Source: Narcine bancroftii
Taxonomy: Eukaryota
Length of the DNA stretch: 64,000 bases
Assembly (NCBI RefSeq): GCF_036971445.1
Contig: NC_091478.1
Coordinates: forward strand, 79,360,001-79,424,000
Reading direction: 5' to 3'
Position 1 is the first letter of the stretch. Each line of letters begins with the position of its first letter. Below are positions 30,035 to 37,900 of this stretch, in pieces. A program made the position numbers and the translations under genes. The notes beneath the pieces were generated by a model. It saw nothing but the letters and a program-made list of their open reading frames with translations. It was not told where the DNA came from and searched no databases.

Positions 30035-31469
30035 AATTGTAGAACCATAGAACATTACAGGACAGAAACAGTCCTCTTCGGCCCTTCTAGTCTGTGCCAA
30101 AAAATTTTTTTGCTTAGTCCCACCGACCTGCACCAAGTCCATAGCCCTCCATTCCTCTCCCATTCACATGCCTGTCCAAATACCTCTAAAATGTTAAAAT
30201 TGAGCCCGCATTCAACCACATCAGCTGGAAGCTCATTCCACACCCCCCACCTCTCTCTGTGTGAAGAGGTTCGCCCTCATGTGTACCCTAAACCATTCCC
30301 CTTTCACTCTTAACCCCTGTCCTCTAGTTTGTATCTCACCTACCCTAAGTCTACATTTACTCTGTCTATCCCTCTCATAACTTTAAATACCTCTATCGAA
30401 TCTCCCCTCATTCTTCTATGCTCCAGGGAATAAAGTCCTAACCTATTTAACCTTTCCCTGTGATATAATATATTATGCTGACCACTTGCTATTGGTTATG
30501 TCTAGATTGGCTCCACCCTACTGGTATTACAGATGGTGCAACTTATCCCACTGGTCAGTAGAGGTGGCTTCTTCTGTTAATAAAAGCCTATAGTATGATA
30601 CAAGTCTGGTCCTTGCTTATGGCATTATCAATTTTATTAACAAGAAAATTATGGATACTTCTCTGAAACCTGGAAGACTCGAGATAGATTAAGATGCCAC
30701 CCGAGCCGGAGAAAAGTTCCACCACTGGCTCCAGTGTTTTGAAGCATACGTGCAAAAGAGCAATGTCGTGCAATATGCTGAGAAAATGGACTATTTTGTG
30801 GCTCTCCTCAGAGACATCCCCTACTCTGTGGTCAGAGAGGTAGCTGGCTACCAGAACACAGTGAATCTCCTTAGAGCCTATTATGATAGGCCTCAAAACA
30901 CCCTGTACTCAAGACACCAGCTTCACATTTGGAATCAACAAGCAGGTGAGAGCGTAGATGTTTTCGTGCTCGCCCTGAAAGGGCTATCCAGGGACTGTGC
31001 CTGCGCTGCTGTCGCGGCTGAAGCCCATCGTGAGTCCCTGATGTTAGACGCGTTCATAAGTGGTCTGGAATCAGGATATGTTACACAGTGCCTACTGGAG
31101 ACTCCGGGCTTGACTTTTAATGCGGCTTTGCATCAAGTGAAGATGCTTCTACATGCTCGCAACTGGTGCCCCGCACAGCAAGATACCTGCACCAACTGTG
31201 GGAAGAAGGGCCATTGGGCCAGAGCTTGCTGAGCTAGAGAGTCGACATTTGGCACTTGTGGTGAGCAGAAGAAAAAGAAGTGCTCAAGCACTGATTCTAA
31301 GCAAGATCGTCATCATAACACCACGATGCTGAGCTGGAGAGTCAATGATTCATCTAGCCCGACTTCGACTTATTCGACTTCTTTTGAATCATCCAGTGGA
31401 TCAATCAGTGACGAGGCGAGGCCCTACATGCCAATGCCACAAGGAGATCTAATCCTGGCTTCCATGAAA

Positions 31470-32125
31470 GTTCTTTCTTTGGCTTGGCTTCGCGGACAAA
31501 GATTTATGGAGGGGTTTGTCCACGTCTGCTGCAGGCTCATTGGTGACTGACAAGTCCGATGCGGGACAGGCAGACACGGTTGCAAGGGAAAATTGGTGGG
31601 TTGGGGTTGGGTGTTGGGTTTTTCCTCCTTTGTCTTTTGTCAGTGAGGTGGGCTCTGCGGTCTTCTTCAAAGGAGGTTGTAGCCCGCCGAACTGTGAGGC
31701 GCCAAGATGCACGGTTGGAGGTGATATCAGCCCACTGGCGGTGGTCAATGTGGCAGGCACCAAGAGATTTCTTTAAGCAGTCCTTGTACCTCTTCTTTGG
31801 TGCACCTCTGTCTCGGTGGCCAGTGGAGAGCTCGCCATAGAACACGATCTTGGGAAGGCAATGGTCCTCCATTCTGGAGATGTGACCCACCCAGCGCAGT
31901 TGGGTCTTCAGCAGCATGGATTCGATGCTTGCGGACTCTGCCAGCTTGAATACTTCGATGTTGGTGATGAAGTCATTCCAATGAATGTTGAGGATGGAGC
32001 GGAGACAGCGCTGATGGAAGCGTTCTAGGAGCCGTTGGTGATGCCGGTAGAGGACCCATGATTCAGAACCGAACAGGAGTGTGGGTATGACAACGGCTCT
32101 GTATACGCTGATCTTTGTGTGTTTC
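31470..32125 (-). mobile_element. RTE LINE 3' fragment nested between gag and protease of the Gypsy element
   Basis: ORF 31537..31917 is nearly identical to the other RTE copies; ttccatga on both sides. Confidence 0.92.
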
Positions 32126-33054
32126 CATGATTAACCATGAAGGTTAATAAAGATAAATCCTACGATCTGCAGCCGTCCACGATGAAAGTGGAGGTAAATG
32201 GGCAACCTATTAACTGTTTATTTGATTCAGGCAGTACAGACAGTTACATTTATCCGTCAACTGCTAGAGCACTAAATCTTGTGTTATACCCGTCTAAGCG
32301 GACAATCACAATGGCTTGCTCGGGACTAGAACAAGATACAACATATTGCAAAATTAAGTTAAAAATAATATATTAATATTAATATATTGACCAAGATTTC
32401 TGTACTCCCTGGCCTATGTGCTCCAATGCATCTGGGTCTAGACTTCCAATGCCAAATGAAAAGTATATTGGCATTTAATAGCCTTTTGCCATCCATCACC
32501 ATCTTGCCAAAGATGTCTTGCGTTTTGTCCACACTAAAAATTAAATCCCCTCGACTCTTCACTAATTTGACCTCAAATTGTAAGCCTGTAGCTACAAAAA
32601 GTAGGTGCTACAGTAAAGAAGACAGACTCTTTATTAAAGACGAGGTAAAGAACTTGTTAAAGGAAAACGTCATCGAGCCCAACACAAGTTTTTGGCACGC
32701 TCAAGTAGTAGTGGTCAGAAATGGCGCGAAACCTAGAATGGTCATGGATTCCAGCCAAACTATAAACAGGTTCACTCAACTAGACGCTTACCCCCTGCCT
32801 CACATTTCAGACATGGTTACTCAAATTGCCCAATACGAAATATACTCCACTATTGATCTGAAATCAGTTTACTACCAAGCTCCCATCAATAAGGATGAAA
32901 GGCAGTTTACTGCTTTTGAGGCAGATGGCAAACTCTTCCAGTTTAAGAGAATTCCTCTTGGCGTCACTAACAGGGTATCCGTTTTTCAAAGAGAGATGGA
33001 TAAGTTAGTGGATATCTATAAGTTTCAGGCCACTTTTCCTTATCTGGACAATGT

Positions 33055-33480
33055 GTGTGTTTATACTAAGGACACCCCGCATCACCCCGCATCACCTCGC
33101 ATCACTGCGCATTTTAGGACTACCCGAACTGTTTCTACCGAGCAATGAATACGCGGTGATGCAGGGCAATGTGAGGTGATGCGAGGTGATGCAGCGCAAT
33201 GCAAGGTGACCAGGAAGTCCGATGAGCAATTGAAAACCGCGGGTGAAAAATTGCGACTTCCGGTGAGTCACCCGCGGTGTTTCCACTGCGAGGTCGTCCC
33301 TCGCATAACCCCGCATCGACCACCTCAAAAGTAGGACGCCGGAGCACCTCGAATCGCTGCACATCGGCCACAACCGGATGTATTTACAGTGCGGCCAGAT
33401 TCGAGGTGTCACCACGCATCACCGCGCTTCACCTCGCATTACCTGGCATCACCGCGCTTTTCCCGGCTCAGTAGAAACAC
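33055..33480. mobile_element. GC-rich palindromic MITE (Harbinger-like) inserted in the Gypsy RT immediately after the YLDNV motif
   Basis: Ends gtgtttatactaag and ctcagtagaaacac are inverted repeats; 10-nt catcacc(t/c)cg repeats in both orientations; host frame YLDNV|TICG is restored on removal. Confidence 0.8.
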
Positions 33481-34214
33481 CATCTGTGGCAAAGACTTGA
33501 ATAATCATGATCCGAACTAAGACACTCATCCATTGAAAAGGAAGCACGAGCTATTATAGAAGCTATCCGCTACTGGAGACACTTCTTAGCTGGCAGGAAG
33601 TTCATCTTTTAACTGACCAAAAATCTGTTGCCTTCATGTTCAACACTAAATTGAAGAGCAAGATTAAAAATGATAAGATTATGCGATTATGCATCGAACT
33701 TTCTACCTATGACTATGACATACTCTATCGTCCAGGAAAATTCAATGATCCTCCTGATGCTCTCTCTCGCGCATCTTGTGCGAGTCTGCAGCTGGACCGA
33801 TTAAAAGTTCTTCAAGAGGAACTGTGCCACCTGGGGGTCACCAGACTTCATCACTATGTGAAATCTGTCAATTGGCCCTATAGAGGATGTGAGAATCCTA
33901 ACTGGACAATGCCCTGTTTGTGCTGAATGCGAACCATGTTATTACAAACCCTCACCTTCCTTGTTGATCGAAGCTTCTCGTCCCTTTGAATGCCTCAGTG
34001 TAGATTTTAAAGGGCCATTGCTTTCAAATATTAGAAATGTTTACTTTCTTAGTGTTATTGATGAATTCTCCCATTTCCCTTTTGCTATCCTTGATTAAAT
34101 TTTTAGTATTTTTGGTTATCTGAATTTAATTCATAGCGATGGAGGTTCAGCCTTTATGAGCTCGGAGCTTCAGCAATATCTTCTTGACAGAAGCATTGCC
34201 ACAAGTCACACTAC

Positions 34215-34918
34215 TGTTGCAGAGTTCTGTGTTGTGTATTGGCCTATGTGTTGTGTGGTTTTATGTTAAAAAAGTGACAGTTTGCCTGAGAGAACCAAGG
34301 TGAAGGTGGACTGCTGAGAGCATGGGAGATGGACTGAGCATGTGCAGAAAATGATCTAAAAATTTCTGGACTTGGACGGTAAACCCCCACTGGGTGGTGT
34401 TGTGGAATGGAAGGAGGCCCAGAGCACGAGTCGTGGTCTGGAGGCCAATTTAGAATGTTGGGATTTCATAAAGGATGAACATTCCGAAGGAAGCCAGAGG
34501 ATCCGGACCAAGTCAGTGGTTCCTCTCTCTCCAAGCAACACAAGACAATTTTGAATTTTGTGCTCTCTCTCTCAAAGATCTTTTGGCTTCAGTTTACCAA
34601 ACAAACTGAATTTTGTTTATGATCTTTGTTTTGGTTGAGATCGAAGTATTGTGAGTCTTGTGTGTTTTGTATCTAAGTTTTTCTATGGGCTGGTTGGAAA
34701 TATAACTTAGATTTGAATTACATATGTTATATTTAGGCTGGGAAATTTATTAGTGTTATACTGTTATAGAAATTTGCATAGTAACCAGTGGGCATTGCTA
34801 TAAAAGGGGGACATTTTGAATTACAGTTTGAAGGTGAATTTTTGTTAATAAAGTAATTGTTCATCTTTACCCTTGTGTGATATGCCTTCTTTGTCGTTGC
34901 TCGTTTGATCTTATAACA
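34215..34918 (+). mobile_element. Solo LTR of another family inserted in the Gypsy integrase
   Basis: TGTT...AACA termini, AATAAA near the 3' end, flanks ctac/gtac; host frame ATSHTT|SYN is restored on removal. Confidence 0.88.
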
Positions 34919-37900
34919 GTACCAGTTACAACACTTGAACGCAGCAATGGTACAATCTGGAAAGCTGTTACCATGGCACTCAAATCTAAGGGTCTCTCCG
35001 CCAGTTGCTGGCAAGAAGAGTTACCTGAAGCTTTGAACTCTATCTGTACCTTACTTTGCACGTCAACTAATGAAACGCCTCATCAGTGTTCGTTTTCTTT
35101 TCCCAAAAAGTCAAAGACTGGATCGACCTTGCCAGCCTGGCTTTCTAGACCTGGGGAAGTCTTGCTGAGAAAGCATGTTAGACAGAGCAAGGTGGATCCA
35201 TTAGTCGAGCATGTACAATTGCTTCAGGCTAACCCACAATATGCTCAAATTGCTTTTCCTGATGGGAGATAAGACATTGTTTCCCTCAAAGATCTTGCTT
35301 TACCTGGGGTTCTGCCTGTAGCTTCTAACCATTTTCCCACTTCCACTAATCTCCCTTTGCCCTCCTCTGAACAGCATGTCTCTGAAATTCAGTCTGTAGA
35401 TTTACCCCAAACAACACCTGCTACCAATCACTTCTTATCTGCTGAAAAAGCACCTTCTCATGTTAGCTTTCAGGAGTGCTCTCCAGTTGTTTTGCATCGG
35501 TCTCAGAGAGTTTCAAGGCCACCACCCCAACGATTTACTTATATGTTTTAATTGCTGCATTTCTCAGATTTATTTTGACTATTGATTTTCTCTCTTCTTC
35601 TGTTGTGCTTTTAACCCTTTTAATTCTAGGGGTTAATTTTTTGGGGGGGGGGTGAATGTAGTTATGTAATGTATTATGCTGACTGCTTGCTATTGGTTAT
35701 GACTGTAGATTGGCTCCTCCCTACTGGTATAACAGATGGCGCAACTTATCCTATTGGTCAGTGGAGGTGGCTTCTTCTGTTAATAAAAGTATGATACAAG
35801 TCTGGTCCTTGCTTATGGCATATCACCCTGTCACTCAGTTCTTGGTCCAGGCAACATTCTAATAAATCTCTGCACTCTTTCTATCTTATTGAAAATTTGG
35901 CCTCACCAATGTCTTACACAACTTGAACATCCCAACTCCTGTACTCAATTATTTGATTTATGAAGGCCAATATGCCAAAAACTCTTTACAACCCTATCCA
36001 CCTGTGATGCCATTTTCAGAGAATTATGTATCTATTCCCAGAGTCCTCTGTCTACTGCATTCCTCAGTGCCCTACCATTTACTGTGCATGAGCTTTCTTG
36101 GTTTGTCCTTCCAAAATGCAACACCTCACGCTTGTCTGCATTAGTGCAACTCCAATCTAGCACCAATGATTGGAACTGAAGTTCAAATCCCATACTGTCT
36201 GTAAGGAGTTTGTACATTCTCCCAATGTCTGCATTAGTTTTCCCAGGGTGGTGTGGGGTTGGTTTTTTCACACTGTTTAAAATGTACCGGGGCTGTAGGT
36301 TAATTGGGTGCCCCGGACTTGTGGGCTGAAATGTTTTATGTCCAAGTTTGAAAAAAAATTAAATTTCATCTGCCATTTTTCAGCCCATTTTTCCGGCTGG
36401 TCCAAATCCATCTGCAAGCTTTGAAAGACTTCCTCACAGCACATCCATTCTTAGTGTCATCTGCAAACTTGCTTATCAAATTTACCACATTACCATCCAA
36501 ATCATTGATATAGATGACAAACAACAATGGTCTCAGCACTGATCACTGAGGCACCCCACTTGCCTGGAGTCACAAGCCTCCAGTCTGAGAAACAATCATC
36601 CACCACTACTCTAGCTTTTCGCATTAATCCATTGTCGAATCCAGTTCACTTCTTTCTGACTAACATCCCATGCGGGACTTTGTCAAAGGTCTTACTAAAG
36701 TCCATGTAGACAATATCTACAGCCTTTCCTTCATCAACTTTCCTGGTAAACTCCTAGGAAAACTCTATGAGATTGGTTACACACGACCTACCGTGCACAA
36801 AGCCATGTTGACTATCCCTAATTAATCCATGACTATCCCAATAATTGTATATCCGATCTCTTTGAATACCTTCCAATAATATAGGTACTACTGATGTCAG
36901 ACTCAGCGGCCTATAAATTCCAGGGTTACTTTTGGACCCTTAACAATGGAATAATGTGAGCTCCCCTCCAATCCTCTGGCACCACACCTGTGGCTATGAA
37001 CATTTTAAATATTTCCGCCAGAGCCCCTGCAGTTTCTACACTAGCCTCCATCAAAGTCCGATGGAATACCTTGTCAGGCCCTGGGGATTTAACCACCCTT
37101 ATATGGTTTAAGACAACTAGCACTTCCTTCTCTTTAATCTGTATAGGTTCCATGACCTCACTCTTGTTTTCCCACGACTCTATGCCCTTTTTCTGAGTTA
37201 ATACTAATGAAAAAAATACATTTAAGACCACTCCCATCTCTTTTGGCTCCATACAAAGCTGATCACTCTTATCTTCAAGGGGGTTAATTTTATCCCTTAC
37301 TATCCTTTAGCTCTTCATATACGTGTAGAAACCCTTAGGATTTTCCTTCACATTGTTGGCCAAAGCAACCTCATGCCTTCTTTAGCCTTCCTGATTTATT
37401 TCTTGAGGTTTTTCTTGCATTTTTTATACCCTAAAGTACATTATTTGCTACATGTTGCCTATACCTGTTACATGCCTCTCTCTTTGTCCATACCAGATCC
37501 CCAATATCCCTCAAAAACCAAGGTTCCCTATGTCTTCTAACCTTGGCTTTGATCCTAACAGGAATCTACAAACTCTGCATTCTTAAAATCTCACTTTTGA
37601 AGCTCCTCCACTTAACTCCCACATCCTTGCACAAAAACAACTTATCCCAATCCACGCATTCTCGATCCTTTCTCATTTCCTGAAAATGGCCCTTTCTCCA
37701 ATTTAGAATCTCAACCCAAGACCCAGGCCTATCCTCTCCATAATTAACATGAAACTAATGACATTATAATTACTGGACTCAAAATGTTCCCTTACACATA
37801 CTTCTGTCACCTGTCCTGTCTTGTTCCCTAATAGGAGATGCAGTATTGCACTCTCTCTAGTTGGTACCTCTAATATTATTGATTTAGAAAACGTTCCTGA

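Follow-up and report, generated by a model that had tools for sequence, protein, structure and literature searches.

Pairing between the primer-site position and the LTR poly(A) signal in an abundant animal Gypsy lineage points to probable self-priming of reverse transcription

In the retrotransposon Tf1, the first 11 nt of the element's own RNA, released by RNase H, serve as the primer of reverse transcription (PMC7175516). Taken together, the passages of the papers cited here assign such self-priming to Tf1/sushi, Tcn1 and the plant TAR copia elements (PMC7175516, PMC4600332, bioRxiv 10.1101/2022.12.06.519325, PMC3601003, PMC6317226, PMC6238403, PMC6934838, PMC3670739, PMC5006619, PMC8220671), and "pretzel" duplexes have been described for Tf1-type elements (bioRxiv 10.1101/2022.12.06.519325). 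In plants, self-priming has been predicted for Tcn1 (gypsy) and for TAR, Houba and Osr-1 (copia) from at least 10 nt past the LTR that are complementary to the 5' LTR, so that it had already been proposed outside Tf1/sushi in the cited part of PMC6317226. The element described here resembles Tf1, Tf2, Tj1 and the Tf1/sushi group in its Gypsy order, in the absence of a tRNA site and in a primer position behind the LTR that is complementary to the 5' LTR, and it shares with the plant Tcn1 and TAR elements the type of evidence. It differs from the latter in that their hosts are plants, Tcn1 is a chromovirus and TAR a copia element, and no link to a poly(A) signal is made in the passages cited. 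In the accessible literature, with subscription journals, Repbase and GyDB outside this scope, we found no description of the present structure in the present lineage.

The locus lies in a stretch of 64,000 nucleotides from Narcine bancroftii, all of which is called the window here, and consists of a decayed Gypsy element at 30461-35825 (Table 1). The LTRs of this copy align with 150 matches and 12 mismatches (12 of 162 aligned positions, 7% divergence), indicating that the copy is old; LTRs of its family are about 170-174 bp long, and the 3' LTR of the window copy has a 7-nt deletion directly past the hexamer. The pol remnants are disrupted by stops, frameshifts, deletions and two insertions, one of which is a solo LTR of roughly 700 bp, and the LINE fragment between gag and pol is one that we take, from its motifs, to be RTE-like. 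The host site (30350-30460 and 35826-35900) is a very high-copy repeat, and the insertion point is confirmed by many contigs that continue past 30460 into sequence like that behind the 3' LTR.

Table 1. Features of the decayed Gypsy element, in window positions.
Feature	Position	Strand	Remarks
Left TSD, CCCTG	30456..30460	+	5 bp, direct reading; 5-bp TSDs also in siblings and relatives
5' LTR	30461..30630	+	ends CA (30629-30630); left edge shortened in window copy
LTR arm, putative self-primer	30569..30585	+	3' end is AATAAA (30579-30584) and one A
Loop	30586..30630	+	45 nt, remaining R and U5; predicted strong-stop DNA template if the RNA is cut 3' of the arm
Spacer separating the LTR CA from the primer-site arm	30631..30631	+	1 nt
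Primer-binding-site position	30632..30646	+	complementary to LTR arm; 11 nt perfect, then bulge
gag	30651..31232	+	stop-interrupted; terminal zinc knuckle (zf-CCHC E=7e-5)
Later insertion, LINE 3' fragment	31470..32135	-	no Pfam match; approximate limits
pol remnants	32140..35272	+	Gypsy order PR-RT-RH-IN, without chromodomain
Later insertion in RT, MITE-like	33057..33480	.	11-bp terminal inverted repeats, internal short repeats
Later insertion in integrase, solo LTR of a different element	34215..34918	.	TG...CA, flanks CTAC/GTAC
Polypurine tract	35643..35656	+	
3' LTR	35657..35825	+	second arm copy at 35772-35788
Right TSD, CCCTG	35826..35830	+	

When the sequence was read directly, the 11 nt TTTTATTAACA at 30632-30642, which begin 1 nt past the CA of the 5' LTR and are followed by the gag ATG at 30651, were the exact complement of TGTTAATAAAA at 30575-30585 and 35778-35788, and no TGG followed the 5' LTR, just as a preliminary description of this DNA had claimed at the same coordinates. 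The 20-nt leader and the bulged extension that it also reported are present in the window copy and are specific to that copy, not traits of the family; the leader of the window copy is 2 nt shorter than that of most siblings. The expectation for such an 11-mer match within the LTR by chance is about 1.3e-4. A survey of siblings (3.3-Gb genome, 1,029 candidates, 40 scored, 30 fetched) revealed a perfect 17-nt duplex in 11 of the 24 anchored siblings, and the remaining anchored siblings mostly had unpaired changes at a single position or a few positions, as decay would give. The siblings have neither TGG nor another tRNA site, and thus the deletion of a normal tRNA site from this copy, which had been named as grounds against the preliminary reading, does not apply. 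The stem between leader and arm was present in both the MFE and the centroid folds of the window element, while the folding z-score of the whole LTR (-0.01) was uninformative.

The comparison across families started from 147 loci, comprising 59 from the Narcine genome (G000, window locus excluded) and 88 from metagenome and MAG contigs. A gag start was present in 140 loci, 136 of these had sufficient upstream DNA, and they fell into 50 families at 80% identity, 43 of which carried the leader anchor CA-N-TTT. When the best member of each anchored family was taken, 29 of the 43 families had a perfect stem reaching 12 nt or more (12-19 nt) and 34 had one of 9 nt or more, counts that are not independent events since the families are related. 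With a random member instead, 25.4 of the 43 families on average had a stem of 12 nt or more, and non-cognate pairs of leader and LTR gave one in 0.34% of 36,120 pairs. Stems of at least 12 nt occurred in 7 of the 16 families in the Narcine genome, where the copies are old, and in 22 of the 27 families elsewhere. Past the T-run, the stem positions use two to four distinct Watson-Crick pair types and the arms differ at most positions, as in L081 (TTTGGTGATTAAA / TTTAATCACCAAA), L152 (TCTATGCTATCAAAA / TTTTGATAGCATAGA) and L127 (GTTCTATGTGTTGTAAA / TTTACAACACATAGAAC). The compensatory pairing between the primer-site position and the LTR segment, for which the preliminary description had proposed a check, is therefore family-specific, and its loss in relatives, which would have spoken against the reading, is not what we found: the relatives retain the pairing.

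Stems shorter than 9 nt were seen in nine anchored families, eight of which are old families of the Narcine genome. Among the seven unanchored families, L156 has a 14-nt stem, L167 a 10-nt stem and L149/L150 an imperfect stem as judged by eye, and in L069 and L115 the upstream DNA holds no recognisable LTR sequence. No complement of the leader was found within the contigs of L120 and L142, which have truncated LTRs or are exceptions. At the contig end of L124 there is an additional family, outside these statistics, with a 14-nt stem and an inner hairpin. The contigs L161-L167, filed in bacterial MAGs, encode animal retrotransposons and are probably contaminating host DNA. The pairing of the primer-site position with the LTR is a real, lineage-wide feature, and a stronger one than the preliminary description had presented. 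A chance A/T-rich match or a decayed tRNA site in the window copy might be suspected from the A/T-rich 11-mer and the age of the copy, but the low expectation, the longer duplexes of siblings that have no TGG, the covariation and the non-cognate control refute this explanation, and we give it practically no weight.

The longest stem begins at +2 after the CA in 33 of 34 families, a count that is partly circular since the CA-N-TTT anchor preselects TTT. An independent check came from aligning 5' and 3' LTRs, which succeeded for 31 of 41 loci (the other 10 lacked a 3' LTR): in 16 loci from 7 families the LTR ended exactly at the CA and the leader arm began 1 nt on, and in the remaining 15 the alignment overshot via chance matches (9), stopped short of or off the LTR end (5), or met a mutated site (1). 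The spacer base is A in 31 of the 34 families. As a control, a young Gypsy family of the Narcine genome (L227-L230, LTRs 97-99% identical) reads CA, then T, then TGG, and this TGG site matches 14 nt of the 3' end of tRNA-Ser(GCT) behind an equal 1-nt spacer. Since the register of the stem is the same as that of the tRNA-Ser site, the 3' A of the arm falls exactly at the position expected for the 3' end of a primer. TGG was absent from the leader in all 114 anchored loci (0/114). When the leader was compared with host tRNAs, as had been proposed, the best matches to 27 distinct tRNAs of 13 anticodon types, an incomplete set, were internal and 6-7 nt long.

Half-tRNA primers occur in copia lineages according to the cited passages of PMC6317226, and the tRNAs compared here were those 27 of 13 anticodon types, so a tRNA fragment or another small host RNA might act as the primer, with the complementarity as a by-product, such as an aid to strand-transfer annealing at the DNA level. 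We regard this as very unlikely, because the site varies between families in step with the LTR, even among many families of one genome, and a fixed set of RNAs cannot follow such changes.

The composition of the stem is informative as well. Among loci in which 12 or more of 14 positions paired, positions 1-13 gave family-weighted counts of 328 Watson-Crick, 2.2 G-U and 7.5 mismatched pairs in the 64 loci from outside the Narcine genome, and the corresponding counts for the Narcine loci were 167, 7.5 and 7.1. Pairing was still 0.95 at position 13 and fell to background by about position 17, a drop-off that would fit a primer of defined length. A stem kept only for its structure should tolerate wobble, while a primer copied from itself should not; in the inner hairpin described below, 21 of 109 pairs are G-U, a figure that the short helices inflate. 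In the young locus L102, one change is found in both LTR arms together with the complementary change in the leader, which is seen in one of the nine anchored copies of the family. The nearly pure Watson-Crick pairing and this double change agree with a primer site whose sequence is copied from the primer. At L109 and L112, a change in the LTR arm is unmatched by the leader; the model allows this for one cycle, yet these two loci lend it no support.

The comparison of families, with its pairing, its register, the absence of TGG and a tRNA control that worked, favors the self-priming proposed in the preliminary description, and we infer with rather high confidence that the lineage primes reverse transcription with its own RNA, not with a tRNA. 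In the route that we propose, transcription would begin at the arm or upstream of it, and the arm would fold onto the primer site. The RNA would then be cut just 3' of the A-run, at the conserved AAA^RCC step, probably by the RNase H of the reverse transcriptase as in Tf1, and the freed 3' end of the arm would prime minus-strand DNA across the loop, which is 24-68 nt long in the 34 families, with LTRs of about 150-250 bp. The 10-30 nt between the hexamer and the poly(A) site would provide the homology for strand transfer, and plus-strand synthesis would renew the primer site from the primer and so keep the two arms matched.

The site of the transcript start needs a separate comment. The preliminary description had predicted a start at 30570-30575, which our data do not support: the 5'-most paired base of the arm is T in 20 of 29 families, unlike the purine at which Pol II usually starts. 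No conserved position of a TATA or initiator element was found in 34 LTRs, of which 5 contain TATA-like words at scattered distances, and a pattern search for poly(A)-tailed LTR retrocopies returned none. From the T that mostly forms the 5' base of the arm and the missing conserved promoter spacing, it follows that the primer, in contrast to that of Tf1, may extend at its 5' end beyond the paired bases.

Such an arm edge, being unlike a Pol II start, is also in keeping with self-priming by the 3' copy of the arm, and the covariation and register data fit that route equally well. Here the transcript would start downstream of the 5' arm and contain only the arm of the 3' LTR, whose pairing with the leader would circularise the genome or join two packaged RNAs, and the tail would be cut off before priming. 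This, however, would remove the 3' R and the tail, which form the strand-transfer acceptor, so that a second RNA would be required, and most of the LTR lies upstream of the arm, with only the loop length 3' of it, so a start in that upstream part is likelier. Priming by the 3' copy thus appears unlikely to us. The earlier statement that the duplex can form only at the 5' LTR holds during transcription; once the RNA is complete, the arm in the 3' LTR could be a partner of the leader as well.

The arm that would serve as the primer has AATAAA (15 families) or ATTAAA (13) at its end in 28 of 34 families; the other 6 have different words there. The mean unpaired probability of its last six bases was 0.06 with the leader versus 0.59 in the LTR alone, a burial that the stem itself entails, and in the window copy the values were 0.004 in the 5' context versus 0.37 in the 3' context. 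These folding models make masking of the 5' poly(A) signal by the stem plausible, and the same stem would hide this signal during transcription as a likely second job. The HIV-1 polyA hairpin, which contains AAUAAA and represses 5' polyadenylation according to the cited part of PMC2645353, is similar as a stem with this signal; it forms at either end of the RNA and apart from the tRNA site, whereas the stem described here has the primer site, outside the LTR, as its second strand.

The hexamers and their burial would also be explained by a stem that only masks the 5' poly(A) signal, in the manner of HIV-1 but asymmetrically from LTR and leader, with priming accomplished otherwise. A masking stem would need neither the fixed +2 register nor a near-zero G-U content, the six arms that have neither main hexamer still form the stem, and the lack of TGG leaves no alternative primer site. 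We assign this explanation a low probability and keep to self-priming as the probable function, to which masking may be added.

Some further structures accompany the stem. An inner hairpin (RCCT…AGGY) starting from the base after the arm was detected in 23 of 34 families, compared with a mean of 9.8 and a maximum of 17 in shuffled sequences; it was present in only one of the eight Narcine families and absent from the family of the window copy. This hairpin tolerates G-U pairs, occurs in most families from outside the Narcine genome (L081-L165) and may mark the cut site. The primer-site arm adjoins or overlaps the gag ATG in L085, L106 and L145, and the first ATG lies 15-28 nt from the start of the primer site in 20 of 29 families; with the arm so near the gag ATG, the stem could also affect translation. 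The side duplexes of the Tf1 pretzel, in contrast, were not seen in a crude longest-helix test of 29 families, in which the cognate values were 5.38 vs 5.14 and 4.45 vs 4.44.

The proteins closest to the element are from Hypanus, Scyliorhinus, Narcine and Mobula (61-68% over RT), followed by those of corals, a copepod, insects, a tunicate and a nematode (52-57%). The lineage is abundant, with 30,192 gag candidates in the Narcine genome, and no relatives were found in scans of viral contigs. Intact relatives encode Gag-PR-RT-RH-IN, in this order, in a single ORF of about 1,200 aa, and the Ty3/Gypsy features, namely LTRs with TG…CA, TSD, PPT and the PR-RT-RH-IN order, are all present. None of 48 relatives matched PF00385 (chromodomain) or PF24626 (SH3_Tf2-1), while fish chromoviruses have both, and the earlier statement that no chromodomain follows integrase therefore extends to intact elements. 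A double CCHC knuckle was found in the Gag of 52 of 57 relatives. Of the 118 clade proteins with the RT catalytic motif, 94 have YxDN and 24 have YxDD.

Over RT-RH, identity between the lineage and fish chromoviruses is only about 26-33%. In RT-RH trees, which were quick, unrooted, supported by SH-aLRT only and built without fungal elements, the lineage forms one side of a long branch with a support of 100, apart from 11 chromovirus-type rows and also from the Gmr1-like rows of the Narcine genome and the tRNA-primed family, and the branch uniting it with the chromoviruses, the sister relation that a shared origin of self-priming would give, had a support of 64. In this quick tree without fungal elements, nesting within the Tf1/sushi chromoviruses was thus not found. 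Membership of the Mag lineage was rejected on the missing TGG (0 of 114 anchored loci) and on an RT-RH identity of 23-31% to the TGG-primed family L228, which we presume to be Mag-type. Gmr1 was rejected since the integrase here does not lie upstream of RT and the branch is separate. Saci2/lennie, with a 4-bp TSD and proposed tRNA primers in the cited part of PMC12471100, is set apart by description, not by sequence comparison, from the 5-bp TSD found here. Among the other loci, L169 and L173 are decayed chromovirus remnants, and L182-L195 belong to an abundant Gmr1-like family in which the integrase precedes RT.

A tunicate element may be a lead to the identity of the lineage. Cigr-1 of Ciona intestinalis, the subject of Simmen and Bird in 2000, is said to be about 4.2 kb long, with short LTRs, one ORF of some 1,200 codons and a Gag like that of echinoderm SURL. 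A Cigr-1 clade is named in the cited part of PMC6238403. The build is the same and our lineage has a tunicate member, a likeness by description only.

Compared with Tf1/sushi, the present lineage has neither chromodomain nor SH3_Tf2-1, has a double-CCHC Gag and mostly a YxDN RT, and occupies its own branch. Its duplex is 13-19 nt long and ends in the poly(A) hexamer, whereas that of Tf1 is 11 nt; the pretzel side duplexes were not seen, and the Tf1 primer consists of the first bases of the RNA, while for the present arm the indirect signs speak against a start at its edge. The distinctive point is the poly(A) signal as the 3' end of the putative primer. That self-priming arose here independently of Tf1/sushi, with a poly(A) signal turned into a primer and one stem that would silence 5' polyadenylation in the nucleus, lie against the gag start codon and, once cut at AAA^RCC, prime reverse transcription, its arms kept matched by the copying, is a possibility that we put forward tentatively, with more doubt than conviction.

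In the papers cited, tRNA-independent priming of Gypsy elements is tied to the Tf1/sushi chromoviruses, and its signature is now extended to an abundant animal lineage. If the proposal is true, these elements would not depend on the host tRNA pool and would escape control by 3' tRNA fragments. Annotation tools that require a tRNA site would miss or mislabel such elements. The stem would also be an economical answer to the problem of avoiding polyadenylation at the 5' end with identical LTRs.
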